DNA of 52,142 nucleotides from Schmidtea nova (taxonomy: Eukaryota). The DNA lies in assembly GCA_044892505.1 (NCBI GenBank), contig CM097882.1:610835859-610888000 (forward strand), given 5' to 3'. The translations under genes and the position numbers were made by a program. Under the pieces are notes generated by a model that saw only the letters and a program-made list of their open reading frames with translations, did no database searches and was not told the DNA's origin. Shown here in pieces: positions 15,460-49,738 of this stretch (the stretch's first letter is position 1; each line of letters opens with the position of its first letter).

Positions 15460-16980
15460 ATGAGTAATAATAGTATAGGCAGCAGTAATAATGGAAGTAA
15501 CAGTAATACAGACAACATAAGCAGTCATAATTTTATAAAAACACTGCCAATAGAATCTTATAAAGGGGACCCTGAAAAGTTCGACGACTTTTTTGCCGAA
15601 ATCGCACAATATGCGGAAGCATGCGGGTGGACATCGAACGAGTTAAAACAAAGAAAATCACTAAATTTAAAGTGATATGCATTACAGGCATACAACAATT
15701 TAGCATTTAAAGGCATTAATTATCAAGAATTAGTTACAAACCTTAAAAAAGAAATAGTAATAGATCGAGACTTACAAAAAATAAATGTTCAAAAATTTAG
15801 AAGTAGATACCAAGGAGCCAGAGAATCAGTAGGTGAATATATATACACGATAACAGAATTAACAAAAAAGGCATTTGGTGCAGGAGATCACACTAGTAGA
15901 TTAATTGAGGATCAATTTTGGAACGGAATCCAAAACATTTTATACAAAGCATTAATTACAATCGAGTATGAAGACTTAAATGAGTTAGTTCAAAGGGCAA
16001 AACGTGTTGAAGCAAGAGATAGATTTAAACCAGAGATAGATGCTGTAGAAATTGAAAAGCAACTTGAGGTGAAACCTGAGTTGAGAAATAAAGATGATAG
16101 TATCCCTTGGGAAGAAATGAAACAATTATATTTGAATTTTGTTAATAATAGACGAAGAGTTAGTCCAAGTAGAAGCCAATCACCTGAAAACAGGGGAAGA
16201 TTTGACAGCCCAGGAAATAAAAATTACGATAATAGAAGTAATCCTTTTAATTTTAAAGATAGAAGAAATACTAATAGAGATAATTTTAGAGATGGTCGTT
16301 CTGAATATAATAGTAATACTAGAGACAGTCGTTTTGATTATAATAGAAGAGACAATAGGTACAGAGATAATTCGAGAGATAGACAAGACAGTCCAGTAAG
16401 GCAAACTACGTCTAATAATGATGGCAGAGATAAAGTGAATTTTAATGGACAAATAAAATATTATAATTGCCAGAGGTATGGGCACTTAGCAAAAGTATGC
16501 AATAAACCACGAGCTGGTTCGCCAATTGGAATAAGATTTAAAAAGGAGCCTGAGATAAAGCAGGTAAGTAGTGATGAGCTTGAGTCAGCAAATAAAGAGA
16601 TAAATATTTTAAGAGAAGAATTAAAAGAATTTAAAATTCAATATGGAAGACTCATTGAGAGAAAACTTGAAATGTTTATAAATGAATTTAGCACTTTTAC
16701 AAATTACGTAGATATTGATAATGATGAGTTAAAAGAAATTAGAGAAGCAGATGAAATATTTCTTACAGAAGAAAATAGACAAAAAGAATTAATAGAGGAA
16801 TTTAAAGAGGTATTGTATAAGCAACCATTTGATGACAATGAAACATTAAGGGTAATTAATAAAATACAGGTTAATAGTATTGATTTAGAGAGGCTTAGAA
16901 ATTTAATACCAATGATGGTAAAAAGACAAAATTTAACGAGGGTATTTGAGTTAGAAATAGAAGATTGCACGAAACACTAA
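15460..16980 (+). pseudogene. gag: Ty3/Gypsy-type Gag with one premature stop (TGA 15673-15675) and a degenerate zinc knuckle, followed by an acidic coiled-coil extension
   Basis: SYKGDPEKFDDFF...YAEACGW...LK*YALQAY...FRSRYQGARESVGEY...QFWNGI...DLNELVQRAKRVE (capsid motifs); RS/N-rich linker; YYNCQRYGHLAKVC (CCHC with first C mutated). The frame is open from 15676 to 16980. Confidence 0.85.
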
Positions 16981-18563
16981 ATGTAACGATCGAGTCAAAT
17001 GATAATTATTTTTTCAGTAATAAACAACGGATACATCCTTGCACTAAAGTGAATAAATTAAAGCGAGTGGTAAGAGCCAAATGGCCAGGAACCATCGGAG
17101 AAAGAGATATAATAAAATTATATTTTAATGGAATAGAATTATTGAATGACGAATATTTAATTGACTATGGGATAAACCCAATAAGTGATAATATTGTGAT
17201 AGCTACAATAAAAAAGCAAACGATTAATGAAATAATGACACCACCACCGTCTGTTGAGTTAAGTATAAATGAGGAAAATGATTTTGATAAATTATTCAGA
17301 CTATGGGACAAATCACCTAGTGAAACAAAGAAATTGGCAACAGAGGAAGAAATTATATTTAAACTTATAGATGATAAGTATAGTAACCTAAAAGAAACAA
17401 TAGAAAGAATAGCTGACGAAGCAAAAACGAAAGATGCGGAAACATTAAAGCGAGGTAGAGGAAGACCTCGAAAATCAGAAATTATAGAAAAATCAGAAAA
17501 TAGAAATACGGCAGAACGATTAAGAGAGATTACAAATCAACAAAGACATGAACAATCAGAGTATCAAGATGATAATAATGAAGTAAACAAAATAAAAGAA
17601 ATAATAAAAGCAATGAATATTAAGCTATTTCCAGAAACAAAGCCAACAGTACAAATTAGAAATATAACTGAAAGGATGATGTTAATTAAAAAGGATACCA
17701 AAGAACTAGCCACAGAGGAGACAATTGAAAAAACAGTATTAAAAATCCTGTTCAATACAGGGATAGATAAAGATAAAATAATAACGGCCATGGCATACTT
17801 GGCCGCAAGATATAAAAAACTCATAAAGGAAAATCCAAAAGAGCAATTAGAAAAAGTAGCAACAATGATGTTTAAAAGATTGAAAGTAGAGGCAATACCA
17901 TGGATAAAAAAGAAAGGAGGATGGAAAGTATTATATGATAAAGATACGACGAATAAAGAGAGTGATACAGATGAGGTAATAAAACAATTAATAACGAAAG
18001 CAACAATAAAACCAAAGACAGAGAGTAAATCGATAACTTCCATAGTAATAATCATAATCACTTTGTTATTAGATTTAATCAGAGGGAGCAATGCAATGGT
18101 AACATATGATTGTCAAATTCCAAAGTGGGGGCAAAAATACTCACTGTTAGATGTTGAAAATTGCCCTGAAGCAAATCCAACTAAATTAATCATGTCAGAG
18201 TCTCAAATATTCCATGTTTATCAAGAATCAATTTTTATTCATACGGAGGCTAAAGAGTGTATCGTAAAGTACCAGGAGGAAGCATATGTATGTCATGCTG
18301 GGGTACGAACAGTGTTAAAACCTACGTGGACACCCGAAGCAGTAATATTGTCGCCAATAGAGTGTGAAGGAGCATTTAAAACAAAGAAAGTAAAATATAG
18401 CGGTTATAAAGGAATCGAACTAGAAGCAAGAATAGGAGCAAAAATGAGACAAGATGTAAATGTCGTGGGATGGACATCAAAAGGAGGAGAATATACAATA
18501 TGGGGTGAAAAACTGAGAAATGTTGTAGTAAGGAGACACTACATGGTAGAACTGAGAAAGTTC
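16965..18563 (+). CDS. Second ORF of the LTR element: ubiquitin-like domain, AT-hook, Bcl-2-like domain, hydrophobic signal/anchor and Env-like glycoprotein N-terminus (truncated at 18563)
   Basis: aa5-82 TKVNKLKR...IKLYFNGIELLNDEYLIDYGI (UBL); aa162-170 KRGRGRPRK; aa258-321 VLKILFNTGIDKDKIITAMAY...PWIKKKGGW (BH1/BH2-like); aa357-377 ITSIVIIIITLLLDLIRGSNA; aa378 onward YDC-x9-SLLDVENC with spaced Cys residues. Confidence 0.7.
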
Positions 18564-19184
18564 ATGACTATAATCAATCAATTCAAAACCTGTCTAACAA
18601 TTCACAACCCTTCATTGTCTATCAATATTTGTGATCATCATTTAACTATTTAAATCATTGTCTAACAATTCACAACCCTTCATTGTCTATCAATCTTAGT
18701 GATCATCATCTGACTAATTAGTGAATTTTATTTTACCCCACACAAACATTCGAAACTGTTATTTTATTATTAATCTGTAACTTTATTATTATTGAATTAT
18801 GGAAAATTTTGTATATTAAATTAGTTTAAAATTTTATTATTTTATATTGTTGTAAATTAATTTTTCATGTGAAGTTCGCAAACAAAATTTACTAAATGTC
18901 ATGGTATAAATTGATTTAATTTTTCAGGTGAACTTTACAAACGGAATTTACTTTTGAATTATTAAATGTCAAAAAATCTCCTTCGGCATAAGTGAATGCC
19001 AATGCCAGCACAAATTTGGGTATATAAGGCAAAGGCACTTCAGCCAAATTGCCATAAAATCCAGTTGTAAAATTTTGCGGATAATTTTGCTCTCATTTAC
19101 AAATCCTGTAGAGCTTTTAAAATAGACCAGTTGGTCAAAAATATATAAAATTAAACAGTTAACAGAACTTTGAAGTTAAATTTA
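18564..19184 (+). repeat. Direct repeat copy 2 of 14474-15027, with an extra internal ~65-bp duplication
   Basis: Direct sequence identity. It truncates the env-like ORF. Confidence 0.8.
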
Positions 19185-21135: not shown

Positions 21136-21600
21136 ACTTCCTCTCTTTGTACTCGAGTCAGTCTATTAGTGTCTTTTTATAGCTGGTGGTTCTACTCCCA
21201 CGCTGCCGGACAAGCATCTTACTCATCCTCATACAAACACTAATACTCTATTAAACTCGAGGCTTTGATAATGTCTTGCCTGGTTCTTCAAGAGATTTAT
21301 ATACATGTTTGCGTCCAGTTTTCCCGGTTCATCATATATATAAAATAAATAAAGTAAAAGGATACGCTTGTTATTGCAGAAGTTCGAATAGGCATAAAGA
21401 ATAATCAAAAGTAGTTTAACTTACCACAGGATCTTCTCGAATGCACAACTTGGAGCCTAATAGCGGGATTTATACTAAAGGAGTTTCACCTGTTCTTGCA
21501 CCCTCAGCTCATCATACACCACACCCTTTGAGCGAAAGTCGACCCGCTACGGACTGTCGTGAGAATTCTTCGCAGCTTCTTGCTGTTATCTCTGCAATGG
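21136..21600. repeat. ~460-bp duplicated module (copies at 26813-26850 plus 27255-27668)
   Basis: Shared cttcctctctttgtactcgagtcag and gtggttctactcccacgctgccg...gagaattcttcgcagcttcttgc. Confidence 0.8.
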
Positions 21601-21639
21601 GTCTCGGAAGCGGCCCCAAATCCACGAGCGAAGTCTATA

Positions 21640-21945
21640 AAGCAATTCTGTTTATTAGTTTGAAAAACCTGTTAATTGATTGGATTAGGTATTCATCGGT
21701 TGCTTTTGTGAGCTCTAATCCTCCTTGGTCCATTGGTGAGTAGAATATGGCATCCATAAATGGACTTTTGTTCGGCAGATCGAGGAGCGTCTTTCCTTTT
21801 ATCATCAATCGGATTCTACTATCAAATTCCGTGAGCTGGGCTACTCCTATATCCTCCACTTGGAAGGGCAATATAAGCTTGGAATGGCAGAATGTTTTAA
21901 AGGCATCAATATTTTGATAGGTTTGAATCAAATATTGATTTGGTA
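21640..21945 (-). mobile_element. NeSL/R2-superfamily non-LTR retrotransposon, RT thumb fragment
   Basis: IDAFKTFCHSKL...FDSRIRLMIK...LDLP-x4-MDAIFYSPMDQGGLEL...EYLIQSI fits the post-RT D-x2-IR-x2-IK-x2-L-x-LP...GGLG pattern. Confidence 0.7.
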
Positions 21946-22051
21946 ATACCTACCACTTCCTCGAGAATGTCGTAGATGTTCCGTTTTTTTTTAATAATAA
22001 TAATAATAAAATTATAATAATAATAATATAATAATAACATTTTCCAAATTT

Positions 22052-23462
22052 TTATTTTCTTCTTCATTATTCGTCACAGCATGCACATCCGTTTACACAG
22101 GATACTCTCATCGAATCTTCACAAAATATTCAATATTCAACGCATTTAGCATTTGATCCGATAACCATATCAATTCTAAAATATTTTGTAATTCTTATAA
22201 ATTAATAAATTTGCCGACATCGACCGTCACAGTAATTGATTGAATCTCTGAATTTCAAATCCCCCGGCTTTAACGGTTAATGCATCCCATTACCCGACAC
22301 TTACTTGCCGCTTTTGTCAACAACTTGTTTCGGTTTGCCACTCAGGAATATCATGCCGGGAACTAAACATTTACCTTTATAATTGATGTTGCTCAACATT
22401 TTTGATTAATTAAACAAATATAAACAATATTAATTAATTAATTAATTAATGAAAATGGAATTTAGAAATGATGCCGTATATCAAATAGTAGGACCCAGCG
22501 GGAGTGGGAAAACCTTGTTTGTATGTATATTATTACAATCAAAAATATTTAAATCGCAATTCAATAAAATTTATTGGCATCGGGGTGCTGATGAAGAACA
22601 TGGATTGACTCAAGATCAGTTTTGTAAATTAAAAATGACTATTATAAAAGGTTTTGACAAAAATTTATTTTCTTCTTCATTATTCGTCACAGCATGCACA
22701 TCCGTTTACACAGGATACTCTCATCGAATCTTCACAAACTATGCAATATTCAACGCATTTAGCATTTGATCCGATAACCATATCATAATGAAACTCAAAT
22801 AATTGACATATTATTACAAATTGGGTTATAATTTAATTGGGTTATTTCCAAAAGTTATTTCCAATTAATTTTATTTTATTAAAGTTTCTTCATTTCTAAT
22901 CTGTTTTCCTGAAATCAATTAAATTAATTGATTTCTTCAATTCTTTTAATTTCTGTTTATAATATTTTTTTGCATTTCTTTTCCAATTCTAAAATATATA
23001 TTTCGACTTCAGCACCAATAACCCTACCCTCATTATAATATCCCCATTTGAGCGCTAGAAAAAAAAAATAAATCAACTTTGAAATTAAAAATAATACTAT
23101 TATTTTATCACAGTCTAAATAATACAATAAAGTACATAATTAATAAGAACAAAAAGAAATAAAATACAAATATTTATTGAAATAATAATAAAAACTTAGA
23201 AAAAACTTAGATAAAACTTTGAAAAATTTTGAAATAAAGAACAACTAAATCGCAAAACTTTATTATAAATTATAAATTTCGTTATAATATGCTTTACGCA
23301 TTTCTGACATTAAGATATGCACCGAATGATCTCTTTTAAAATCGTGACAGCATGCACATCCGTTTACACAGGATACTCTCAGTGAATCATTGCAAACTAT
23401 ACAATATTCAACGCATTTAGCACATTATCCGATAACCATATTATAGTGAATCTCAAGCAATT
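22052..23462 (+). repeat. Three dispersed copies of a ~120-bp module (22052-22172, 22662-22803, 23342-23462)
   Basis: tcgtcacagcatgcacatccgtttacacaggatactctca...caacgcatttagca...ccgataaccatat is seen three times. Copy 2 truncates the ATPase. Confidence 0.85.
22449..22661 (+). pseudogene. Polinton/Maverick packaging ATPase (A32/FtsK-HerA-like), N-terminal fragment
   Basis: YQIVGPSGSGKTLFVCILL...FNKIYWHRG: Walker A plus the F-x2-IYW motif typical of Polinton ATPases. No Walker B, because the fragment is cut by a repeat. Confidence 0.8.
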
Positions 23463-23534
23463 GTTCGATATTGATCCCAGTAAGCTTGTATATCTTATGA
23501 ACCAATAACTCGGGTGCACAGTAATCCAAAGAAT

Positions 23535-23800
23535 TTTAAAATTTTATTTATGTTATCTTCAAAGGTCTCCTTCAAAGTTCTTCCAGGAAGACATTTTAAC
23601 TCCTTCGCATAGGCTTTTTCAATGGTCTCAAAAACATTATCTCTTGCAGCAAAGATGCTAGAATCTCTAGTTTCAGTATCATAAAGACAGTCAACAATAC
23701 CGATGCTGTGACCTTCAATGAGAAACCAGTTATTTACTACTCTTTGAACATCATTGAAAAAGTTTCCGATAACCTCATAATTATGTTCTAGTGGATATAA
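23535..23800 (-). pseudogene. RPB1: Divergent fragment of an RNA polymerase II-type largest subunit (funnel region)
   Basis: FFNDVQRVVNNWFLIEGHSIGIVDC...VFETIEKAY-x2-EL-x3-PGRTLKETFEDNINKIL aligns by eye with eukaryotic RPB1 [24 protein letters not shown]...[33 protein letters not shown]. The flanks are not homologous. Confidence 0.85.
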
Positions 23801-23929
23801 TTCTTGAATTTTCTTCAGGATCACTTCAAATAAATAAGCTAAATAAAAAATAATAATAATAAAGATATTTAAAAATAATACTTACTTTTAGACATTTTCT
23901 TTCACCATTTAATTCATTATATTATAAAA

Positions 23930-24790
23930 TCTTCGCAGCTTCTTGCAGTTTTTTTTGGCGACCCACCTTTACAGTGGGCCTATAAATTTATTCAAATAAA
24001 AAAATTCTTCGCTCCTAGGAGACGAGTCCTGTCCTTTCAGACCGCCCGGCCGAAGATGGCACAGGCTATTTTCATCCATGTTTTATTTTATTTTCCCCTT
24101 GAGCCATGGTCTAGGGACCAACGACTGAGCAGGTTCAGCATTGCGAATTGAATCGGCAGGTATTCATATTTATTTCGGAGTGGAAAAAAGCTTTTATCGT
24201 CATTATCCATTCATTGTCATTCGGCAGGCATTCCATTATTCATTTAGTTGTTCATTTAGTTGTATTCATTTCGAAAGTCTTCATCATTATAGTATCATCA
24301 CCATTATGGTTATTTCCATTTTATTAATTATACAGATGGTATAATTAACGGTATAATTAATTAAGTATAATAGTCTCGGAAGCGGCCCCAAATCCACGAG
24401 TGAAGTCTACAAAGCAATTCGACCCTTCCCATCTAGCTTTGTGTACAACAAGTCTCGCATCGACTTATCGCACGCCAGGGAGTCACCAACTTTAATAGGC
24501 TTACTCCACTTGGCTAACAAGTTTCTGACGACATCCTGCTCCACTAATCCGCGAATCCTTCCATCACTGCTATCGGCAAGCTTCTTCAATCTGGTTACCT
24601 TCACAAATTTGACTTCAGCCAAGAGAGTAGGTACCCGCATTCCCCCATCTTTAACCTTGGAGTGATTGTATGAAAAGCACGTATCTTTGGGTAGATGTAA
24701 CCATTTACGAACTAGCATCCGGGTCATCTTGTCCAGTTCACCGAGCTCCGAATCATCAGTTTCGCCTAAAATTGCTTCGCGCAAAATGCC
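23930..24790. repeat. ~860-bp duplicated module (second copy about 27655-28525)
   Basis: Near-identical, including ggagacgagtcctgtcctttcagaccgcccggccgaag and the R2-like thumb fragment. Confidence 0.9.
24407..24784 (-). mobile_element. R2-like non-LTR retrotransposon, RT thumb fragment (copy 1)
   Basis: LGELDKMTRMLVRKWLHLPKDT-x4-HSKVKDGGM-x2-PTL...RLKKLADS...LYTKLDGKG matches the R2 LD-x3-R-x2-VR-x-WL-x-LP...DGG...DG-x-G pattern. Confidence 0.8.
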
Positions 24791-25480
24791 TCAGAATCTT
24801 CGTTGCTGCAATGGGTAACCAGTGGTGACAGAGCCCCATTGGCAGCAGTTTCAGATTCATTAGAGGAATTTATAATATTATTAGTGTTGTTAAAATTATA
24901 ATTTAAAAGAATCTCCCCCATTTCCATTGATGATAGCACTTCGTCCACTACTGAACTGATCCAAGATTCAGTAAGAGCTGATTCAGAACTCCTAGTGTCC
25001 ACGAAATCCGATTGGGGTGAATCGAATATCTTCTCTAGTAAATCTGCTGTCGCGTCATCTCTTTCAATCGATTTCTGAATCTGTTTTTTCAATTTTTTCT
25101 TTTCCTTTTTCCTTTTATTGGTGGACGCCTTGGGATTAGATTTCTTATCTGCTGCATTACAAATTAAAATGTCATTTTTATTAATTTTATTAAAAGGAAA
25201 TTTATCAGTTTCATCCGCGTTTGGTGCTCCTATATTTTCTATTAATACTTTATCCATGTCCCTGAAAACCGGGGTTTGCGGGCTGTTCCTTATCTTGTGC
25301 AGCCATGATTCCGGGACATGAATGTTCTTGATAATATCTTCCCATGACAATGATGATAGATCTTCATAGGATTTTATAATAGCATCACATATGATGTTTA
25401 TCCTTTTATAATTATCTTCAGTTCCAAAGTCGAACTTTGTGATACACTGTGTTTCTGTATTGGTTATGTGATGTTTGATA
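24790..25480 (-). pseudogene. N-terminal coding fragment, probably of the same non-LTR family (paralog of 28810-28980)
   Basis: The open frame includes GAPNADETDKF-x-FNKINKNDILICN...KSNPKASTNKRKKEKKK, which recurs upstream of the Ulp1 motif near 28850-28975. Confidence 0.45.
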
Positions 25481-28159
25481 TTTCACATGAATATTCTGCA
25501 GGTGTGTAGGTTTGGACATATATTAGGTTTGATGTGTGCGTTGTCTTCTTTTTTAATTTTGTGTTTTTGTGTGAGGTGATGGTTACTATTGATAATAATA
25601 ATTACCATGCCTACTGTTAAAAATTTCATGAATTCGTTTACAATGCTAACTACTCCTGTTAATACGGGGATAGATAACGATAATGATAATAATAATAAAA
25701 TAATAATAAAATTAATATTCACAAATTTAAATATTAAAAAAATGTCTATAGCTATTATGAATCCTATTGATGATATAAATGCTATGAACGCTTGTCCGCA
25801 ACAAGCCGCAACTATATAGGGGGAGTGAGTATAATGATGAAAATAATTATAGTTTAACTACAAATAGAAAAATTAGAATTAATAATAAACCGTTTAAAAT
25901 AATGAAACCAAACTTGAAAAGTGAAAAATTATATATAAAGAAAAGTATATATATAATGAAAGTAGAGATATATATTTTGATAATGACAGAAAGATTATAA
26001 ATGAATACAATGATGAATGTCAAAATAAAATAGAGTCTGAGGCTGCCTATTTTGGGGATCTATATAGAGACTATGTCAATTTATTAAAGGTGCCACATTA
26101 TTTCTTTTTACACATAAGTAATGATATATAATGATATATATCTGTCACATTAAATAATACAGTTCTTTATGAAAATAATTTGATCCCAAAATTATCTTTA
26201 AATATATTTAATTGAAAAACAAACTACATAAAATGCCTTTGACAACTCCACCGCATGCCATAGACTCTTGACGTAGAGGCAATTTCAGGCACATTCAGAC
26301 CACTTCTTCCAATTCCAGCAATAACAAGACCTTCTTGTTTTCAATGTTTGTTTTCTCAGTTTAAGGAAGATTCTTTAAAACTCGTAAATATTTCATATTG
26401 GTCAAAGGACCAAGCATCGACCCTTGTAATTGCTAAAAATCTACATGAAGAAGTGAAATAAATTGAGTATCCTTGGAAGGGATAAGAACATCACCAAGTC
26501 TAAACTGGACGGTCATTGCTTATCCACAAAGAATTGTCATTTTTGTTAAAATGAAATTCTCGGTTTACCTAAAAAGAAATTCTTGGGACAAATGATGAAA
26601 GGTTTTAAAGTATTTACGCGATCCAGTGACCTTATTCGGTAAATATGGTCGACAATTCTTTGAATTCAAATTTTTTCTTAAATCGTTCGAAACTAACAAT
26701 AGCGACCGGATCCATAAAAATGAACAACAAATAAAAATGTTATATAAAAATATACTACCTGCTGTAAATGTGAGCACCAAGAATCTGAAGCTCATGTAAT
26801 AAACCATTGTCTACTTCCTCTCTTTGTACTCGAGTCAGTTTATTAGTGTCGAAGTGATAGATTAATGCCAAATCGAATCATAGTGGCGAACCACAAAATC
26901 AACGACCAACATTCAACTTACATAACAGTTCGACGGATTCTTCAGGGGACAAAAGATTTTGGTATCCGACTCCCCCTGATCTGCCCCCACCACAGGTACG
27001 TTATTAAGGCAATCGTATTACCGGCCGCCTTGACGCATGTAAAGCAACTCAGCAAGCCGAGTGGTGTAGTTTATCTTTTTATAACTGGTGGTCCTACTCC
27101 CACACTGTCCTTACAACTTAACACCAATCAGCTCCAAATATCTTGCTTTCGCTTTCATTTAAAAGGTGAGACTGACACTAAGCTGCGCTTCCACTGGTCA
27201 TGATAAGTAGTCATAACTCATGTAGTCCTATTCAGCAATCTGAATAGCGTAGTTTGTCTTTTTATAGCCGGTGGTTCTACTCCCACGCTGCCGTACAAGC
27301 ATCGTACTCATCCTCATACAAACACTAATACTCTATTAAACTCGAGGCTTTGTCTTGCCTGAATCTTCAAGAGATTTATATACATGTGTCCAGTTTACCA
27401 TGTTCATTATATATATATAAAAATAAAATAATAAGATAAAGTAAAAGGATACGCTTGTTCTTGCAGAGAAGTTCGAATAGGCCTAAAGAATACTCAAAGT
27501 AGTTGAACTTACCACAGGATCTTCTCGAATGCACAACTTGAGCCTAATAGCGGGATTTATACTAAGGGAGTTTCACCTGTTCTTGCACCCTCAGCCCATC
27601 ATACACCACACTTTGAGCGAAAGTCGACCCGCTACGGACTGTCGGGAGAATTCTTCGCAGCTTCTTGCAGATTTTTTTTGGGGACCCTCCTTTTCAGTGG
27701 GCCTATAAATTTATTCAAATAAAAAAATTCTTCGCTCCTAGGAGACGAGTCCTGTCCTTTCAGACCGCCCGGCCGAAGATGGCACAGGCTATTTTCATCC
27801 ATGTTTTATTTTATTTTCCCCTTGAGCCATGGTCTAGGGACCAACGACTGAGCAGGTTCAGCATTGCGAATTGAATCGGAGGTATTGTCATTCTTATCAT
27901 CGGCAGGTATTCATATTTATTTCGGAGTGGAAAAAAGCTTTTATCGTCAGGAGGCCATTCATTGTCATTCATTGTCATTCCCATTATTCATTTAGTTGTT
28001 CATTTAGTTGTATTCATTTTGAAAGTCTTCATCATTATAGTATCATCACCATTATGGTTATTTCCATTTTATTAATTATACAGATGGTATAATTAACGGT
28101 ATAATTAATTAAGTATAATAGTCTCGGAAGCGGCCCCAAATCCACGAGTGAAGTCTACA

Positions 28160-30010
28160 AAGCAATTCGACCCTTCCCATCTAGCTTTGTGTACAACAAG
28201 TCTCGCATCGACTAATCGCACGCCAAACTTTAATAGGCTTACTCCACTTGGCTAACAAGTTTCTGACGACATCCTGCTCCACTAATCCGCGAATCCTTCC
28301 ATCACTGCTATCGGCAAGCTTCTTCAATCTGGTTACCTTCACAAATTTGACTTCAGCCAAGAGAGTAGGTACCCGCATTCCCCCATCTTTAACCTTGGAG
28401 TGACTGTATGAAAAGCACGTATCTTTGGGTAGATGTAACCATTTACGAACTAACATCCGGGTCATCTTGTCCAGTTCACCGAGCTCCGAATCATCAGTTT
28501 CGCCTAAAATTGCTTCATGCAAAATGCCTGGTATAAGGAAGTTAGTTAAGACTTCCAGTTTTTGTTGGGGTTTAATAGGGTAGATAGTAATATTGTTAAT
28601 GCGTTCTGTATATATTTTAGTTAGATTATTTTTCATTTTGCCGCTTCTGATGAAGTCACACATGTATTGTATGACAAATACCCCACAGTCATAGTTGTTC
28701 GGTTGGAGAGGATATTCACATTTGCTAAGGGATGAATTATCCAATTTTTGTTCAATTGTGTTTTCCACACATTTATCTAATTAAATATTGCAAGACCGAA
28801 AGTTGGTTATTTGGGTCAATTATTGCTGAGGACAATTTTTTCCTCTCCTTTTTCTTTTTATTGGTAGACGCCCTTGGGGTTAGACTTCCTTTCTACTGTA
28901 TTACAAATTAGAATGTTATTTTTATTAATTTTATTAAATAAAAGAAAATTATCATTTTCATCCGCGCTTGGTGCTCCTCCAGGATCTCCAGACTTCCGAT
29001 GAGCAGCAGGATCTTCGGCATGTTGAGCATCGCTTTCTGAAAATAATAATGCGACCTGATTATCGTTCAGGTCAGACGAAACAGAAGTACCTTCGGTACT
29101 TCTGGGGGGCCCGATCGACCCCCCAAAAGCTTTATCTCCACATCTTCATTGGAGATTGTTCGTTATCCATTGTGAATTGATTATCTTGGTTATTTTCAAT
29201 AGATTTCTCCATTTCAACCCCACTACCAGAGGGATAACTGGATTGTGGGGGACAAGCGATTGACATTTTTTTAGGTTGCATCTTTTTAATGTAATTTTCT
29301 CGAATAATCCATATTTTCTATTGAATTATATTTTGTATTAATCAGAATTTTTTTCTGATTATTTTGATCTATAACTTTAGAAGATTCATTTGAGGATTGC
29401 AATCTTTTTTTAAGATTGGAATTTATGATGAAATCATCATTAAATATTTCATCATATTTTATTAAATTAATATTATCTGAATATATGTAGCTTCTCTCCA
29501 AGTTATCCGATTTAGTTAAATTTTTTTCCATAAAATCCAGTATTTTTTTCTGAATAATTTGGTGTAAAATTTTTGAAAGTTGATCGATATTTGACTCCAC
29601 TATTTTATCTCCACTTCTTCATCTGAGATTGGAGATTGTTCTTTATCTACGTTTTTTCCAATAGATTTATGGTGTAAAATATTTGTCAATTGTTCAAAAT
29701 CTTTGCAAATCTGGGCATTTGTTTCGGTTGTAATATGAATATCTTCTTTATTTTTTATAGAATTATTCATCATTTCAACCCCACAACCAGAGGGATAACT
29801 GGATTGTGGGGGACAAGCGATTAAAGTATTTCCCATTTGCATTTTTTCAATATAATTTTTAAAAAGTGATTTAATTTCGCAATTTAAAACAATTTTATCT
29901 TGTTCATTGATGATATTAGAATATATGGAACTTTCTGAATATTCCATATTTTCCAATAAATTCTTTTTTGTAATAACCGGTTTTGTAAGGTCCTGACTCT
30001 TGTGATCCAT
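28160..30010 (-). mobile_element. Internally deleted NeSL/R2-type retrotransposon: N-terminal ORF pieces, Ulp1/C48-type protease motif (28652-28720), then R2-like thumb (28160-28605)
   Basis: CEYPLQPNNYDCGVFVIQYM (Ulp1 Q-x-N-x2-DCG-x-F motif) is joined in frame to ERINNITIYPIKPQQKLEVLTNFLIPGILHEAILG (R2 PLKPQQ motif). The RT core is missing. An internal duplication links 29150-29265 and 29625-29825. Confidence 0.7.
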
Positions 30011-36170: not shown

Positions 36171-38364
36171 TTTGCATAGAAAAACGTCGGTGTTGAATAA
36201 CAATAGTTTCATTTTCATCTCAATAAATATTTTGTTAACTTAAGGTTATCCCGTCTCCAACAAGCCTCACCCAACCCCACATGAATCAACACCAATCTAC
36301 AAATCCGGTCGATATTTTCATATCGAGGGAAGATGACCGACGAATGATAGTTGGATCCACCTAATTCTGTGGCCACATGATTTGAAGTTAATAAATGTTT
36401 TTTGAGAAATTTCTCATCGTGCGAAGTTTTCGAAATAAATTGAACGCAACCTAAATAAATTGTTACAGCGAACCATCTCACCAATAATTCTCAAACCGAC
36501 TGTTTCCGCGTAGAGACCGATTGATTACCAAGTAGATCAGCTAGGAAAAGGGAAATTAGAGAAAGCGTGTGATAAATCATAAGGATATATAGAATAAAAC
36601 TCATTGGGGGGACGAACATCCATGGAATGTAAATGCGTAAGACCTTCTAGCGGCAGCAAGGACCCGAGGGAAGATAAATGGGGAGTAGTTTTGGCAACAA
36701 AGCTCACCTGCCCATCATTTTTCCACCACCGTGTGCAGTACCAACTTGACTAATAGGGAATAGTCAAGGGCATACGCGTGTAGTAGTCATGTTATGTATG
36801 GTTATGGGTGCGGAATCCCTAGTATACTTATTTATCATTATTCGTTTGATTAATTATGAATTATTTATTGTTACTCAGTTAAAACCCACCCATAAACCCA
36901 GCACTTTAGATAGCTTAAAATGCTAAAATTATTAACGAAACACGTGTGCAACACTAAATACGACAACTTTTAAATTTTGAATAAAGCGATTTTATAGAAA
37001 TTTAAATTTCATCTATACTTTATTACAATTAAAACTCAATAAATTTATTTTATATACATGAAAAAGGCAAAGATTAATTACAAAACATGTGTGCATTACA
37101 AACACACCAACAAACTAATTTTCTAATCAATCCATTTTATAGGAAAAATAAATTTTACATACACTTTATTACAATGAAAGATACATAAAATTACTTTATA
37201 TTGTTGAAAATTTGAAAATTCAAAATAAAACACGTGTGCATCTCAAAATACGACAACTTTCAAATTTCTAATAAAGCCATTTTGTAAACAATTAAATTTT
37301 AAGTGAAATATACAAATTTAATTAAAAACACGTGTGTACAACACAATACGCAACAATTTAAAATTTGAATAAAGCCATGTTGTAGAGAATTAAATTTTGC
37401 CTATACATTGGTACACTGAAAACCTGATCAGATCCATATGAAGTGTAAAAAAGAACGTGAGAAAAAACGGGAGAGTAGGAGGAAGTGTGGACGGGGGGAA
37501 ACATAAATCAAATAAAAGCGAATATAAATCATTTTGGATTTTAATTATTTCTATCTTAATATCCATTTGATTTACGTCAAACGTGTGGGAGATTTTATTC
37601 AAGACTTCTTGTATGTTAAAATTGTTCTGGAAGACATTCAAAAAAAGCAAACGAAGGTTTCAATCTTTTTAAAATCTTCAAATTCGTTTACAATGCTAAC
37701 TACTCCTGTTAATAAGGGGACAAATAATGATAATGATAATAATAAAATAATTAACTTACAAATAATAATAATAAGTTGCTGATGTTTAGGAACTGAATTT
37801 GTGATTAATTTAGAATTTTTAAAGAATTTGATAATTAAGGTCGGTGCCATAAATGCTATGAAAAATCATAAGGCTTACCCGAAACGCGTGCCCCCCCTGA
37901 AGGGAACCACGCTCTGCTACCATTAGTTGATTTACCATTAGTTGCTTCTGATTTTCTGAATCCTTTCATAGCGTTTCATTCGAAGACAATGTAAGAAAAC
38001 TTTCAGGGAATCTAAAAACACTAATGAAATTTTATAATACACATGATAAAAATTTACCTGGAAAATACGAAAGTATTGTCCCCCAAAAAATCAATAAAAC
38101 AACAAATTAAAATTTACCATTCATAAATAGAATGACAGATAAAAATCTGCCATTCTCTTTTAATATTAATATTCCAAATGAGATTTCGGACTAATTATGA
38201 TCACTGGATTGAGGCGGCGAAGAGTTCATTGCATAATAATTAGCAGCATCGTCAGCATTAGCTTCCAAAACATAACATTTGATAAAACTGCTACTTCATT
38301 GAATAATTCTAAGAGATAATAATATTCCATTCAAGCTAAATTCACCTAATAAAATTGATAATAA

Positions 38365-38952
38365 ACGTGTAGTTGGAATACAAGATATTTTCCAACCACT
38401 AAAGTTAGCCAATCCATATTTAGGAATATGGAGTTATGAAAAACAATCGGTAGTTCCTTACGAATCTGCCTAGAAAGATTACATTTCGAACAAGCAGCAC
38501 CCAAGAATTCACCAGTGTAATGGTCATGATCTCTAACCGGATTAAGTAAACGATTTTTACAAAGTTAACAAATGGTCCATTAGGCAAAAGATCTTTTATT
38601 ATCAAATGTCATAAGAAGTGGTTCCTTCTAGTTATTTTTATAAAAAGGATAAACAATTTCTTCACCTATATCGCTAATTTCAGAAAGGAACCTAATCACA
38701 CAATCTATACCTAAGAAACTCTTGTATGCTTTTTCACCAATAAAGTTATTAACAAGTAAAAGTCCAGCAGATTTAGGTACATGTCTCTGAAAATACTTAT
38801 CATCAGAAGTTACGATCGCCTCAAAATTAGTGTAAACTATAAAAGGCGGAGTAATTGTTTTACCCCAATTACTAAATTTCAAATAAGGGTTTTTAGGTAT
38901 TGTGCCTAATTGATTTTTAGAAGACAACTCTTGATGACGATCGTATGCATCT
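38365..38952 (-). pseudogene. polB: Polinton protein-primed DNA polymerase B, N-terminal/pre-exonuclease fragment with stops
   Basis: YLKFSNW-x5-PPFIVYTNFEA...FQRHVP-x-SAG...F-x-G-x-DCV-x2-FL, then IC*LC...PVRDHDHYTGEFLGAACSKCNL...LPIVFHNS. Confidence 0.85.
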
Positions 38953-38954
38953 TG

Positions 38955-39861
38955 AGTAGGTAGATGTGTGGAGCCGGGAACAAAGACATTATGACTCATT
39001 GCGTGGGCGGAAATAAAGAACAAAGACCCCCGGGGGTAGAAATTTTTTTGATGAGTCATCGATGAGTCATACTTTTTTTGATGAGTCATCGATGAGTCAT
39101 AATTTTTTTTTCAAATTTTTTTTTCGCGCCAAAAATTTTTTTCAAATTTTTTTTGCGCCAAAAATTTTTTTCAAATATTATTTTCGCGCCAAAAAATTTT
39201 TTTCAAATTTTATTTTCGCGCCAAAAAAATTTTTTCAAATTTTTTTTTAGACAAAAATTTTTTTTAGACAAATTTTTTTTTAGACAAAATTTTTTTTTCA
39301 AATTTTTTTTTTTAGACATTTTTTTTTAGACAAAATTTTTTAAGACAAAATTTTTCAAATTTTTTTTTAAGTCAAATTTATTTTTACACAATTTATTTTT
39401 AGACAAATTTTTTTTTAGACAAAATTTTTTTAACACAAATTTTATCAACACCAATTTTTTTTACAAAAATTTATTTTTTAAGACAAATTTTTTATTACAC
39501 AAAATTAGAGTCATCAAAAATATTTGCAACAGGCGTGCAAACTAAACAAAGACATTGCAATGTCTTTGTTGTATTTGTGCATGTTTAATTAATTAGTATT
39601 TGTCAAGTATGAAGCTTTTGCACATCAAAACCATCACAGAAGAGGTTCTGCTTCCAGGGTTCTGATCGCAATGTTCTGCTACTAATGTTGTTATTTATTT
39701 ATTTAATTATTTCACAAATTATTATCTTTCAAACTAAACAAAGACATTGCAACACACGTGCAAGTTAACAAGGACTTTGCAACATGCATGCAAACTAACC
39801 AAAGACATTGCAACACACATGCAACACTTTGCAACACATGTGCAACATAAACAAAGACATT
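38955..39861 (+). mobile_element. Polinton/Maverick-like terminal repeat copy 2, starting AGTAGGTAGATG and abutting the polB fragment
   Basis: Inverted homolog of 12614-13132 with expanded subrepeats. A ~170-bp insert (39561-39729) carries the motif aaaaccatcacagaagaggttctgct also seen at 2568-2593. Confidence 0.6.
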
Positions 39862-40084
39862 AAAAAGCCAAAATAAAATTTATTTATAAATATATTGTTG
39901 TGTGCGTGTACAAAATTTCGTTTCAAAATTATTTACATCTAAATTATTACTTGGAATATTACTCATAGGAATATTATTCATTGTAATATTATTCGTCGGA
40001 ATATTATTATTAATTTTCGGAATATTATTCTTTGGAATATTTGATATCTTCTCCAACCGTATGGATGCCGATAATACCATTATA

Positions 40085-40288: not shown

Positions 40289-41010
40289 NNNNNNNNNNNN
40301 NNNNNNNNNNNNNNNNNNNNNNNNNNNNNNNNNNNNNNNNNNNNNNNNNNNNNNNNNNNNNNNNNNNNNNNNNNNNNNNNNNNNNNNNNNNNNNNNNNNN
40401 NNNNNNNNNNNNNNNNNNNNNNNNNNNNNNNNNNNNNNNNNNNNNNNNNNNNNNNNNNNNNNNNNNNNNNNNNNNNNNNNNNNNNNNNNNNNNNNNNNNN
40501 NNNNNNNNNNNNNNNNNNNNNNNNNNNNNNNNNNNNNNNNNNNNNNNNAAATAACTTATAAAAATAACTTATAAAAAGTAAAAATAATAATTTATAAAAA
40601 ATTAACAAAAAAATAATTCATTAGTTTTAATTGATTGCGCAATTTATTACAATCAAAATGTATTGGCCCTAAAGAGGGCCATTATTTCGTGCACAATCTC
40701 TTTTCTGTTTTCTTTTATCTTTTCGGTTTATTATCATAATTTATATCTTTTCATTTTCGGTTTATTTTCATTTTCTGTTAATTTTCAGTTTTCGGTTTTC
40801 TCAATCTTTTATTTTTGGTCCTGTTTTCATTTCTATTTTCGGTGAGGTAAATTTTCTAAAACTGCTAATTTAATATTTTTTTTATACAATCATAAATTGT
40901 GGCCCTGAAGAGGGCCGATTGTTCATTCACATATCTTTTTGGTTTTCTTTATATCTTTTTTTTTTTTTTTTCGGTTTATTCTTTTTTTTTATATCTTTTT
41001 TTCCATGTCA

Positions 41011-41082
41011 TCATCCGAAATAATCAATTGCGGTCGGATTATAAAAATAGTACGCATCTTCATCATCATAATCTGCCGGACC

Positions 41083-41141
<59 letters not shown>

Positions 41142-41955
41142 GAAGCTGCTGCTGTTCTTGATTGCCATCCCGGTCACCTACAAATATAGTGGTGCCACCC
41201 CCCATATAATGGCCATACGCCAAACTTTTATTTTTTTCCACCCAGTTCCTCTTATCATCCCTACAAGATAAGGCCCTCTTATTGCTTTTAATACTGAAAA
41301 GTTGGTGGTTTTTCGAAGTAATGCGGAACTGGGGGACATTATAGATTTTGTCATTTAAAAAGCAGTCAAGGTAAGACTGGTGTGTGAGACCTGCATCTTT
41401 CAAACAGATACCCTTGGCTTTCATGCAGGCCTCGTCTCCCATCAGGCTATAACACTTAGGTCTTAAGAAAACCCACTCATCATACAGTAGACCCTTGTTC
41501 TCATCCTTAAATTTACCAATCACAGAATCAAGGGTCCTACTATACAATGCATGATGAGTGTCGTAATTCGAAGTGTCCAAAAGCCTATCGTGAATCATGG
41601 CGGTCAAAAGAGTGTTTAGGTCAAGATGTTTTATTTCTAAGAAGAAGGAATCAGTATCCCCAGCAACGATGTTAATTTCGCAGTTGAAGTCGTTACGATA
41701 TTTTTGTAACTCTTTATACTGCAGCTGGTACATACGAAGTTTGGATAAATCCAGTACGGTTTGTCCGATGTAGCTGGGTCTATCCAAACATACTGATTCC
41801 TTCTGAAGCAATACGGAGATGAGGTCACTGTCAATTTTATTTGTTTTTTTGAAATTAGGTTTTGACGTGTAAGTCAGCAGTTTTTGTGCCGAATTACACA
41901 ATCTTAAATTGATTCGTTTTTTTAAGTTCTCTACGGTTTTGCCGTAGAGACTATT
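41011..41955 (-). pseudogene. polB: Polinton pPolB C-terminal half (uninterrupted) with a poly-Q tail
   Basis: NSLYGKTVEN, LDRPSYIGQTVLDLSKLRMY, GDTDS, DTSNY, VIGKFKDE, FLRPKCYS, KAKGI, DDKR, LAYGHY (ends 41206), followed by a 65-aa extension. Confidence 0.95.
41083..41142. repeat. (TTG)20 microsatellite encoding Q20 on the minus strand
   Basis: Read directly from the sequence. Confidence 0.95.
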
Positions 41956-42388
41956 AAAAAGATATGAGAACGAACAATCGGCCCTCTTCAGGGCCACAAT
42001 TTATGATTGTGTAAAAAAAATAATAAAAAAAACTTTTAGCTCACAGAAAACAGAAATGAAACAAAATTTGAAAAGAAAACCGAAAAGAAATAATCAAACA
42101 AAAATTTAAAAGAAAACCGAACGCAAAAAATTTTAAAATATTGAGAAAACCGAAAACTGAAAACAAACCAATAAAGAAAAATTAACCGAAAATGAAAAGA
42201 AAAAAATGATGAAAATAAACCGAAACTGAAAAGATAAAAGAAAACAGATTGTGCACGAAATAATGGTCCTCTTTAGGACTTTATTTTTGATTGTATATAA
42301 AATTGCGATAACAATTAAAACTATGAACTTACTAATTTTTTATGTGTTATTCAATTATTTTTTTTTTTAAAGTTTATTACTATTTAAG

Positions 42389-44241
42389 CATGGCGGACAC
42401 GCGCGGATGATGCAATGGTCAATAAGGGTGCCGGATACGTGCGGATGATGCAATAGTATTTCTATAATTAGTAGTTGCCATTGGCAACACGTGCCATAAG
42501 TGTGTCTTTGCACAAGTTTGCTGGTCACGTACGAGTGATGTAATGGTCAAGTGTCCGGTGTTATGTAACTTTAAAAAATTTGAGGGGGGGGTAACTGATC
42601 TGACGGGGACACATCTTACTACTGACTTTTCGTCTTTCTTTTGATAATCTGTATTTAGTTTGCTATTGTGAAGAAATGATAAATCAAGATTTTATGCAAA
42701 ATCCAGAAACATCTCCGTAACTTTGATTCAATCTTTTATTATTAATAATCATGATAAATTTGATCAATGAATGTTAGGAGCGATTGGGGAGTTACATTTG
42801 AAATATTCGTTTCCATATAGATTTATATAGATTTCAATAAGACTGTCTAACGGCTTCCAGGGTCGCCCACAATCTCTCACAGCGATCAAGCACCCAAATA
42901 ATTATTTTAATTATTATTTAATTAATTTAAAAAATATTTTAAGAGCGGGTGCGACCACACCATTTAGTATTGATGAATATATTGATTTTAATTTTCTAGA
43001 AACATTAGAAATTTTCAATTTGTCTGTGATTAAATCTCGCGATCTCAGTCTGAAAACCAAGAAAAATAAAGAAAGCAATAGGAGCTGGATGCGCCGAACC
43101 ATGGTGGAATAGCCTTTTCAGGAACTATTATTTCTTGATGAATTATATTTCGTATTACATTTTTTTATGTAACTTTGTATTTAAATGATTATCATAATAA
43201 GAAGTCTTGTAATACTTGTTACAATATTTGCAAAGTTTTTGGCTTTGGCTTGTCATTTCTTGTATTTTTATTTTTATTATATAATTTCACAAATATAACC
43301 AATTATTCCACTAGAGTAGCGATAAAAAGGTAGACCAAAGTTGGCTAGAATGTATTTTAATTCATAAGTCTTGAAATATATACTTTGAAGTTATGAGCGA
43401 AGCGAATAACTTGAAGCATATACTTTTAATTCTAATGACCTTCAAATATGTACTTTTAGCCGGCTTTGGAAAATACAAATTAAATGTACCATTATTTCCA
43501 TATTGATTTCCGTTCGATTGTCCAGCAGCAATTTGTTCTCTAGTAATTTCCTCTGGTTTAAAAATTAAAGCTAATTAAAGGTAATATAAAAAATAAATTA
43601 AGATCAATGTCCACGTTTAATCGTTCATTTCTGCTTGCAGCTTGAAATTGGTTAGTGAATTGGATATATTTAACTAAAAAATATATATAATAATAAAATA
43701 TATAATCTTTTACCATTTTTGTTATCATTTTCAGGTTTTGAATTGGATTCATTCATATTGTTTAGATTAATATTTCCTAAAAATAAATATATTGTAAATA
43801 AATAAAATAAAAATTACCAATTCTGATTTTTCGGATAGAATCCTTTATCGATTGAGATATATTTTGCATTTTGTCAATAGTTGAAAAGTGTTGTTGTTGA
43901 AAAAGTGAAAAAATATGAAAACATATAGTATACATCACGTTTATTACAAACTTTATTCACGAGGCAATCAGAATCGAGATAGGGAAGAAAAAGTTGGTAT
44001 CTATGTTAAAAAATCACTCACAAAATATGTGTCATGACTTTGTAAAAGTTTGCCTTATGCATATTCGATGCAATGTTACAAAGACATTATGTGACAGTAG
44101 TAGGATGTGTCCTCATCAGATCAGTTACCTTTATGGCACGTGTTGCCAATGGCAACTTATTATTATAGAAATAGTATTGCATCATCCGCACGTGTCCGGG
44201 ACATCTATTGACCATTGCATCATTCGCACGTGACCGGCATG
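42389..44241. repeat. Inverted homologous segments 42389-42499 / 44131-44241, plus 42591-42615 / 44104-44129, with tgatgcaatggtcaa subrepeats
   Basis: The reverse complement of 44131-44241 (catgccggtcacgtgcgaatgatgcaatggtcaata...ggcaacacgtgccataa) matches 42389-42499. Confidence 0.8.
42814..42854 (-). ncRNA. Planarian-type spliced-leader (SL) exon copy lacking the downstream GT donor
   Basis: Minus strand GCCGTTAGACAGTCTTATTGAAATCTATATAAATCTATATG versus the recalled triclad SL GCCGTTAGACGGTCTTATCGAAATCTATATAAATCTTATATG: two CpG-type transitions and one deletion. It ends in the flatworm-typical ATG but is followed by GA, not GT. Confidence 0.8.
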
Positions 44242-44536
44242 TTTATTGACCAACACACATATGGATAGTAACCGGCATACTTATTGACCGACACACCATC
44301 AGGTTATCACTACCCGCCATCCGCCCACTGCGCTCCGCTGTTCTCAACTGCGATCCATTAAACTATTGAAAATCTAGATTAGTATTATAAATATATAGTT
44401 TTCAAGTTATATAAATGCAAGATTTCTCATAAGGATTCAGATTTATAATGCTTTCATGAAGTCTGTAGTGCCCATTAGACTTTTTTCTCGTACACGTTGC
44501 ATTTTATAAATAATTCAACACAAAAATGTCTAATGA

Positions 44537-47211: not shown

Positions 47212-48030
47212 ATGTACAACAACGATTCCTTCGCCACTTCCCGAACATATGTACTAATGCGTTTCAACCACAAAACACGCCAAATCCCCATTTTCACGGA
47301 TTTGCGCATTGATATCGCCACCTCTCATCTGCTTAATAGGAATGATTTTTACATGTCGTACAACGGTTTCCCAGTTTCATCACTCACCGACATTCCACCC
47401 AATGCTATAATAGAAATTCATTGCCGCGTTTTAGGAGGCGTCCGAACCACAACAGAACCGTCTTATTCATCCACGTCACGCCCAATTTTGTTCTTATTGG
47501 ATCCCAACGGCACACCCTCGTCATGGTTCCGCATTTTCGAATCACGCACGTCTTCCTTTCCGATATCACGCGCCGATTACCTACTCGATAGCTTACCATC
47601 TGAGCTGATAGCCGAGCTTGCTCCGAAAATAGCCGACGCGCTTTACGCAGACAACCCGTACGATGATCTCAAATCCCTGATAGTGTCAAAATACACCTCA
47701 TCACAAACCCAAGCTCTCACAAAGCTTTTGGCACCACAAAATTACTCAGGACAACAGCCAAGCCTATTCCTAGCACAGATTGCCCGCTCCAACGACACCG
47801 CCATTCCAGATCTGTCCAAAAACACTCAACTCTTAAAACACCAATTCCTCTCCGCACTTCCATATAATCTACAAACCTCCCTCGCATTGGTAGACTCTGA
47901 AGACCCGTACCATCTTGCTAAAAAAGCTGATCGCATTTATGCACTTCAACCCCATAAACCGCGCGCTGATAATTACACACCACCACCGCCACCTTCCATT
48001 GTCAACGCAACACATTCACCCGAAAACCAC
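47212..48030 (+). CDS. gag: Ubiquitin-like domain (76 aa, ends RVLGG, 47212-47439) fused to a Gypsy Gag capsid; 3'-truncated by a non-LTR RT fragment
   Basis: Counting from ATG 47212 puts Gly-Gly at residues 75-76. Then PSSWFRIFE...PSELIAEL...NPYDDLKSLIV...ALTKLL...QQPSLFLAQI...LLKHQFLSALP-x2-LQTSLA...LAKKADRI, the Gag type that usually accompanies RPCGDYR-class RTs. Confidence 0.8.
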
Positions 48031-48059
48031 TACACCTGCAACGTCACAAAGAATTCCAA

Positions 48060-48826
48060 AGAATTCCAACTATACAAACTGGGTCAGCTGCAATAATATC
48101 CTACATATCGGACAAAAAGGAGGTTCGATACATGAAGGCTGCGTCGAGCATAATTCAATACTATCTTCTGCCCTTGAACATTCAAAATATAGTAAATACT
48201 CCCCATTATCGATTGCATGGTTGGATATTAAGGATGCATTTAGAAGTGTACCTCATGACTACCTGTGGAATGTTCTACAAACCATCGGAGTCAGCGAAAA
48301 TTTCACAACAATTATTAAACTACTTTACACTGACACTTGCTCCTTCTACAGCTGTGGCCCAATTCAAACACTTGATCTTTCAATCAAACAAGGTGTTAAG
48401 CAAGGATGTCCTCTTTCTATGATTCTTTTCTCGATAGCCATAAACCCTGTTCTTGAAGCTATTAGTAAATCACAGATTGAACCATTCATGATTAGTGACT
48501 CACCGATTCAAGTTCTTGCTTACGCTGATGATATTGCACTTGTTGCCAGAAATGTTGATGACCTTCAACAAATTGTTAATATTGCTGTTGAAACAGCTGC
48601 TGAAATAGGTTTCGAATACCGTCCTGAGAAGTGTGGGTATCTGCAATTGCCGAGAATACACATAAATTGCGAAATTCTGATAAATGGAACGAAAATCGAG
48701 AAACTGCTTTCAAAAGAATTTTACCAGTATCTTGGCGTTCCAGTAGGCGAAGATAATGACCAAAGTCCTTACAAAATTTTACAAAACGTGATCATCGACG
48801 CTAACAAGATTGCAAATTCAGACTTG
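48060..48826 (+). mobile_element. NeSL/R2/Utopia-type non-LTR reverse transcriptase core, uninterrupted fragment
   Basis: QKG-x4-EGCVEHN, WLDIKDAF-x-SVPH, GVKQGCPLS, LAYADDIAL, PEKC, YQYLGV. Confidence 0.92.
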
Positions 48827-48827
48827 T

Positions 48828-49738
48828 ATCATACAATAATCGGTATTTTTCGACAATGATAATGAAGTTACATTGAAATGTTAGAATGTAGATGAAGGTT
48901 CAGCATAAGATCCATTATATTGATTTTCAGCTTGAAAAGCTACAAGAATGAAATTAGGCATTCTTCTATCTCCAAATATTTGCTCCTTGTAAAATGACGA
49001 TGCCCCTTTACCGATTGCAAACGATACGATTTCTTTGGATTTTAGTGGATAAATTGCATGTTTACTATTTAAACCAATTTGATGTCCTGCTAATACTGAA
49101 GACTCACACCGAACTCTTCTTACCATTAATTTAGCGTCTACTAATTGGATTATTGGTTTCCCAATTGCGGATTTCAATGATAAATGCAGATTCAGATCGT
49201 TTCAATCTAATATGTTCATTAACTCCAAGAAGTAAGTATTTAGGTTGATCCATAAAATCGAGTTGTAATGATGAACACATGTTGAAAAGTTTTGATCCTT
49301 TGATCCACTTTTTTCTATCTTAAGATGAACCATATCTCATTGGAGTAAGACATGTTTCTTTTGTATCGCTAGTATAATTTAAAATAGTTTCGATTATTGC
49401 CTTGTGTGCATATGTATTGTTTCCACCCTCAATTTTTATATTATTAAATCCAAGAATCGCATCTTTGAAAAGAGTATGAAACAAATAGTTATTAGGTACT
49501 ACATTACTCGCATCAGCAAATTTATTTGTATCCCATCTAGAACCTTGACAGTAACGGATAATAAATTATCGTTCAAATCCAAATATTCGGTTGCCGATCC
49601 GTTAATGTAAAATTCTACATCATTTCTACTATCTGTAAAAGAATTCATTGGAAACACATCTTCAAACACCCCATATTCAATAACTGCTTGGGGTGATGGT
49701 CGATCGAAAATACATAATTCAGATTTATCGCAAATCAT
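48828..49738 (-). pseudogene. Polinton/Maverick major capsid protein, disrupted and C-terminally truncated
   Basis: CDKSELCIFDRPSPQAVIE...VEFYINGS-x2-EYLDLND; VVPNNYLFHTLF...YAHKAIIETILNY...DFMDQPKYLL-x-GV; DAKLMVRRV...HAIYPL...YNGSY. Confidence 0.9.

Follow-up and report, generated by a model that had tools for sequence, protein, structure and literature searches.

What is a spliced leader (SL) exon doing in the 52,142-nt stretch of Schmidtea nova DNA analyzed here (the window), when no splice donor follows it, and does the DNA that it heads form a single transposed unit? The interval in question, 42358-42854, is a composite of two unrelated pieces, an SL relic and a Polinton-type end. In 42854-42624, an SL exon runs directly, at its exact splice boundary, into 190 nt of other DNA, with a common repeat upstream. 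By the features examined, the locus behaves as an SL relic and is neither an SL gene nor a SINE. The explanation that we tentatively prefer as a whole, with somewhat less than even confidence, is that the relic is the fossil of a reverse-transcribed SL-capped RNA, which was joined to a repeat, amplified and then cut by a Polinton. The features are listed in Table 1. The window has a GC content of ~30% and is interrupted by three assembly gaps. It is a patchwork of fragments of mobile elements, with gypsy and LINE-type reverse transcriptases (RTs), a GIY-YIG piece, an Ulp1-like protease piece and pieces of Polinton-type polymerases.

Table 1. Features at and around the SL copy (window coordinates).
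Feature	Position	Strand	Remarks
Donor-less planarian SL exon copy	42814..42854	minus	41 nt, ends in ATG; 2 transitions and 1 lost T relative to published SL1
190-nt segment joined exactly to the SL end	42624..42813	minus	28% GC; no +1 GT donor, no Sm-like site; multi-copy in public contigs
Proximal part of the upstream repeat	42855..42942	minus	common 5' of many SL copies; 45 nt GC-rich (53% GC), then AT-only stretch
Distal part of the same upstream repeat	42943..43131	minus	lower coverage; neither open frame matches a protein
Polinton/Maverick-type terminus	42385..42623	minus	starts AGTAGT at 42623; exceeds its twin by ~90 nt; stops abruptly at 42385
Second Polinton-type terminus	44096..44300	plus	starts AGTAGT; faces away from the first; homology to 44245, right limit approximate
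C-terminal part of a protein-primed PolB	41182..41970	minus	0.6 kb inward of the 42623 end
Inverted arm	41956..42365	minus	73% inverted copy of 40580-40940; the pair brackets the PolB fragment
AATAAA + A11	42358..42378	minus	beyond the shared module, where the inverted arm 41956-42365 has its AT-rich outer edge

The 41-mer occurs only once in the window, and its position, its terminal ATG and its junction with GAAACG are as described in the sequence-only reading from which this analysis started. The SL origin proposed there is borne out as well, the match to Schmidtea SL genes and to SL-capped mRNA contigs being greater than expected by chance. The leader sequence points to a freshwater planarian as host. 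The SL genes printed in Fig. S6 of PMC10899757 are five from S. polychroa and SL1 of S. mediterranea, and the differences given in Table 1 were counted by eye over the 35 exon letters printed in that figure. The window copy has the length (~42 nt) and the terminal ATG of an SL-gene exon. In that figure, all six SL genes show a GT donor, a U-rich Sm-like site and a hairpin after the exon; at the window copy, the GT directly after ATG is absent (ATG|GAAACG), as had been stated previously. The window exon is a fossil, a dead copy unable to donate its leader.

A short SL pattern identified five loci in metagenome contigs, namely two SL-capped mRNAs, one possible relic (L003) and two chance matches (L001 and L002), none of the five being an SL gene, and the long SL pattern gave 0 matches in metagenome and viral contigs. 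The two mRNA contigs, L004 (Omp85-family) and L005 (thiolase), are unrelated and carry one common leader at their start, 23 of the first 25 letters of which are identical to those of the window copy; since both leaders begin at GCCG, the start of the SL was placed there. In L004, which comes from a related animal, the leader ATG opens a real reading frame. In the AT-rich contig of L003 (960-1040, minus strand), 24 of 26 letters match the 5' part of the leader, without any donor after it, and this is perhaps an SL relic in another flatworm or else a chance match.

The junction was followed in public contigs from four runs (X1-X4) of a single study, corresponding to at most three samples, in which 33-38% of the sampled words were shared. 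The contigs were mapped on 42250-44130 at 80%; they are relatives, possibly other alleles, and their contig type is unrecorded. The evidence is drawn from what was listed, namely 24 loose-end rows (of 868), 15 joints (of 16), 32 pieces (of 5604) and 40 difference rows (of 128). Because the contigs run unspliced through 43482-43701 and no intron-type joints occur among the 15 of 16 listed, they behave like DNA. Their summed depth cannot be read as a number of copies. Most of the long joints whose shorter side has 20-26 letters were counted as chance AT-rich matches.

The SL junction at 42814/42813 is multi-copy. One contig (X2 record 11) spans 42649-42835, including the junction, with a depth of 102, as compared with 10-16 in the lowest listed contigs, and continues past its matched stretch with 65 further letters differing from the module at 42385-42623; records 5, 20, and 28 cover 42666-42795 with a depth raised likewise. 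The canonical SL end is completed and then followed by mixed sequence in 19 (X2) and 26 (X3) contigs (agreement 0.54 and 0.49), with no GT plurality after the SL end, this group being found at 42819 among the listed rows for X2 and X3 only. The search for SL-exon copies lacking GT that had been suggested along with the sequence-only reading yields, in the public contigs, these 19 and 26 contigs with mixed non-donor flanks. The window copy and these two sets of contigs alike have a leader that stops precisely at the splice boundary and is followed by sequence other than an intron.

Upstream of the SL, 14, 19, and 10 contigs run into a homologue of 42855-42880 (agreement 0.79, 0.69, and 0.86 in the rows listed); these contigs and the mixed-flank SL contigs are separately counted groups. 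Coverage is high over 42817-42942, approximately tenfold less over 42943-43131 and lower still beyond, although this stepwise drop is inflated by chance matches to the AT-only stretch 42898-42945. In other copies of the repeat, a short tandem duplication (GAAGCC) is seen where the SL begins. A group of four contigs (X4) reads from the repeat via GCCG into non-SL letters, this continuation resting on the last consensus letters, and one X1 contig departs from the SL at 42851 into other AT-rich DNA. Protein searches with the two open frames over the repeat gave no match, retroelement proteins included, which is weak evidence, and a literature search for the 5' flank of planarian SL genes found none. 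A coding role was ruled out for the 45-codon frame that traverses the SL (42764-42901), in view of the frame-shifting indels present there in related copies. The upstream repeat may be either the end of a retroelement or the promoter or flank of an SL gene.

The tentatively preferred explanation includes an RNA intermediate because the exact exon boundary points to trans-splicing. An RNA would have been trans-spliced to the SL, and the RT of a retroelement would have copied this SL-capped RNA up to its capped 5' end. The RT would then have continued onto a second template, the now-upstream repeat, via the short GCCG/GAAGCC match at the SL start, either by a template jump onto a repeat RNA at its 3' end or by strand transfer inside a terminal repeat. 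The common, stepwise-fading upstream sequence and the small variants at the junction fit an RT jump from the cap or a strand transfer of this kind. The SL-repeat chimera would have been integrated and then amplified together with its neighborhood, and in the window copy a Polinton would have landed 190 nt after the SL, the remainder being lost from view. NeSL/LIN-type RT genes are present in the window, which speaks for this explanation. Searches of the window and of proteins showed neither a parent transcript nor an acceptor site, a poly(A) or a TSD belonging to the SL-headed copy, and no parent locus with an AG acceptor came up by protein search or among the 24 of 868 loose-end rows listed; the 3' part of the copy, where a poly(A) end and a TSD would lie, is hidden because the Polinton end replaces it at 42623. 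An RNA-derived junction, in line with the retroposed trans-spliced transcript envisaged in the sequence-only reading, is the best account of the first 231 nt, but not of the whole 500-nt unit to which it had been applied.

The main alternative, which we consider rather unlikely, is that the upstream repeat is the 5' flank of an SL RNA gene which lost its intron at the donor, by means of either an SL-capped cDNA or an SL-targeting element. In the first case, the cDNA would have paired with the SL gene through the exon, and the mixed flanks would be those of different mRNAs; in the second case, the 5' end of a NeSL/CRE-like non-LTR element would lie at the donor, and the mixed flanks would correspond to different 5' truncations. 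The disruption of an SL gene by an insertion had been among the earlier proposals: the missing donor has been confirmed, and the disruption itself is kept as an option because the DNA 5' of the SL is common to many SL-bearing contigs. In three of the four runs, the repeat is the best-supported sequence 5' of the SL, and no drop in coverage occurs across the SL start. In addition, SL genes are often multi-copy with common flanks, as described for S. mansoni, the G directly after ATG is the same as the first letter of a donor, and planarian LIN families target small-RNA and rRNA genes (PMC4640811). However, the LIN targets listed in that source are 28S rRNA, tRNA-Arg, and tRNA-Glu and not the SL, the 7-nt length difference at the start site and the non-SL continuation suit a promoter poorly, and the window contains neither an SL intron nor the 3' end of an element, the 190 nt being devoid of RT-coding sequence.

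Under the tentatively preferred explanation, the 190 nt following the leader are presumed to be a candidate 5' end of a trans-spliced RNA. They gave no coding match, no likeness to the LINE-like copies in the window and no RT-coding sequence, and no Sm-like motif RAT(3-6)GR was found among them. The folding analysis gave z = 0.04, the exon hairpin alone being stable. In Rfam searches, 0 matches in the window passed gathering, and the four obtained for 42300-44400 when E up to 5 was allowed are at the level of chance. These data bear on another reading, according to which the locus is a diverged or decayed SL RNA gene paralogue composed of a flank, an exon and a degenerate intron, with perhaps a shifted donor AAT|GTAAC (GT at 42795). 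In its favor, short colinear matches, weak and made by eye, were detected between 42795-42720 and the published SL1 intron, a 12-letter motif chosen post hoc occurs once in the window, 83-94 nt past the SL (0.09 expected), and flukes have been reported to carry donor-less SL pseudogenes. This reading is nevertheless improbable given the missing Sm-like motif and the fold score; moreover, related copies keep the canonical exon end yet differ inside the 12-letter motif (42724), and a near-intact exon beside a barely alignable intron is at odds with neutral decay.

The frame opened by the SL ATG was correctly described in the sequence-only reading (METNISNVTPQ...): it consists of 24 codons, METNISNVTPQSLLTFIDQIYHDY, and is closed by three TAA. 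When searched against proteins with the stops read through as X, it gave no match, which is weak evidence. Another reading takes the locus for a plain retrocopy of one trans-spliced host mRNA, with the SL ATG as its start codon, inserted in an older repeat and later duplicated with its surroundings. The 24 open codons and the real frame started by the SL ATG in L004 speak for such a retrocopy, as does the similar depth of 42649-42813 and 43482-43799 (X2, X4). It is distinctly improbable, however, since three stops follow and no change was observed there in related contigs (40 of 128 difference rows listed), since there is no protein match and since the 10-19 distinct contigs joining the SL to one upstream repeat are left unexplained.

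Leftward of 42623, the DNA is the end of a Polinton/Maverick-type element. It shows inverted homology with the second terminus, 42385-42499 being 88% identical to 44245-44131 and 42590-42624 being 91% identical to 44129-44095, with a local score of 160 between the two copies, as against a maximum of 30 in 500 shuffles. The homology of the tail with 44104-44241, noticed previously, is thus real, but it is inverted, starts at AGTAGT and stops at 42385. The motif AGTAGT, or 5'-(AGT)2, is given as the commonest Maverick end motif in PMC8097293; it occurs in the window at a frequency of 2.3e-4 per position and is found at a sharp boundary at both termini. In the public contigs, the joint rows and X4 record 27 quit the match exactly at 42623 or join at 44096. 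Of 1698 candidate proteins, 273 matched the PolB fragment 41182-41970 at E up to 1e-5, the best of them being 67-70% identical, and the relatives of the fragment are annotated PF03175 and PF02945; it was not recognized in searches of PHROGs, PDB, and Pfam. A further PolB piece is located at 38344-38954. The 5'-(AGT)2 end, the subterminal repeats and the protein-primed PolB lying inward are as described for Polintons/Mavericks in PMC8097293; the window differs in that its two ends face apart and belong to two decayed insertions. That they are two insertions, around 1.47 kb of other DNA, is deduced from the termini facing away from each other.

The two modules were also considered as the inward-facing TIRs of one element, which was ruled out, the sharp end and the end motif being on the inner sides. 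No partner ends or 6-bp TSDs were found in the window, in which there are only two end copies, facing away and with different flanks, and the assembly gap 40289-40548 may hide a partner end. No matches to the Polinton terminus pattern were obtained in viral contigs. The segment 48881-49198 resembles double-jelly-roll clusters in its features, with sub-threshold recognition (PF21738 is annotated on 32% of the members), and a P-loop piece at 22446-22766 gave a weak match. Each of the arms boxing the PolB fragment (40580-42365) contains two GGCCCT-type hairpin motifs, and the PolB frame terminates in a long CAA (poly-Q) run.

The AATAAA (42378-42373) and the A11 run (42368-42358) are present where the sequence-only reading had placed them, 4 nt apart, and no TSD is evident, as also noted there, the longest word common to the flanks being 4 nt. 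An AATAAA occurs within 30 nt upstream of 8 of the 38 runs of at least 8 A in the window, so that the signal at 42378-42358 is at background level. The region shows a loose, AT-rich alignment with the outer edge of the arm pair 41956-42365/40580-40940. In addition, 10, 17, and 12 contigs (X2-X4) diverge from the window at 42385, with an agreement of 0.84-0.92, and continue onward like 44245-44275; the A-rich stretch is therefore not the end of the module. The AATAAA and A11 are incidental AT-rich letters in the decayed interior of a Polinton-type element. A ~500-nt unit with a shared 3' module and a poly(A) tail is not supported, since the module is an inverted Polinton-type terminus and contigs leave it at 42623. 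The ~500-nt SL-headed SINE-like family built on such a unit is almost certainly not the right explanation: an SL head, a multi-copy junction and an AATAAA with A11 are all present, but the module is inverted relative to its twin and opens at the Polinton end motif, its coverage is far above that of the body (approximately a thousandfold in summed depth, X2-X4), it is missing after the junction in X2 record 11, and the A11 lies beyond it, without a TSD.

Several other features were observed in the surrounding DNA. An LTR-like element with 95-98% direct repeats occupies 14474-19184, and one stretch of its long frame 16950-18653 resembles Bcl-2 (E 2.5e-6, short of the curated cut-off). Several LINE-like copies with RT pieces and an Ulp1-protease-like piece, in a NeSL/LIN-type layout, are found at 21170-29145 and 47894-48859; no tRNA gene, a possible LIN target, was found in the window. 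A homogeneous 31-nt satellite (~49 copies, 96% matches) extends over 10852-12382. Long inverted arms of short tandem repeats, ~26 kb apart, are present at 12614-13031 and 39197-39872; together with the P-loop (22446-22769) and PolB pieces that they enclose, they possibly correspond to another decayed Polinton with nested insertions. On the minus strand at 43400-43870, four small exons with 40-60-nt GT-AG introns were discerned by eye, in a fragment covered by multi-copy unspliced contigs; a deeply covered repeat lies just upstream of it (43888-44013). A short frame at 43155-43286 (minus strand) resembles zf-C2H2_jaz (E 1.5e-4, just under the cut-off), and a protein search with it gave no homologue, which is weak evidence.

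Donor-less SL copies beside mobile elements are already known from flatworms. Among 1179 candidate loci from 24 parasitic flatworms, 597 were discarded as partial leaders beside LTR/LINE elements, the interpretation being that trans-spliced RNA of retrotransposons had integrated there (Calvelo et al., 2025, PMC12582326). As at our locus, a genomic SL is present there without the rest of the SL RNA and in a mobile-element context, whereas the animal studied here is a free-living planarian, the exon is of full length and a common repeat lies 5' of the SL. The classic case of relict leaders is that of the DinoSL retrogenes of dinoflagellates (Song et al., 2017, PMC5585692), in which a leader tag is likewise fossilized in DNA at the exact splice boundary; here, in contrast, no surviving gene was found behind the tag, and the upstream DNA is a common repeat rather than arbitrary DNA. 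NeSL and the planarian LIN elements (Kojima and Jurka, 2015, PMC4640811) are comparable insofar as their insertion into multicopy RNA genes could strand an exon without its intron, and related RT and protease pieces occur within the window; the targets listed in that source are 28S rRNA and tRNA genes, however, and no element sequence could be linked with this junction. Template jumping by non-LTR RTs has been published for U6/L1 chimeras and the R2 RT (PMC8857657, PMC2104539, PMC6789731). Such chimeras likewise consist of two RNAs fused during or before reverse transcription, with a common 5' part on varied 3' parts, but here the 3' partner would be an SL-capped RNA, and we infer the mechanism. 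Our literature search, in which the primary SL papers (Zayas, 2005; Rossi, 2014) were not included, gave no planarian account of donor-less SL copies.

A match to the SL exon in a planarian assembly, these findings suggest, often marks something other than an SL gene, and an AATAAA followed by an A-run carries little meaning at 70% AT. The repeat common 5' of many donor-less SL copies is a lead worth keeping. Planarian genomes might harbor dozens of different trans-spliced RNAs that are all joined, by way of an intact SL exon, to a single upstream sequence and so make up one family; we regard this as decidedly unlikely. If this were true and the upstream sequence were the SL-gene promoter, it would amount to a route by which retrocopies receive a ready snRNA-type promoter and a start codon, or alternatively to the trace left by a flatworm retroelement that targets SL genes and has so far gone unreported. 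With the 19-26 distinct non-donor SL junctions and the common 5' repeat suggested by the contigs, SL-tagged retroposition could be counted in an animal whose inheritance runs through stem cells, and it could be decided whether the SL genes have been targeted or hijacked.
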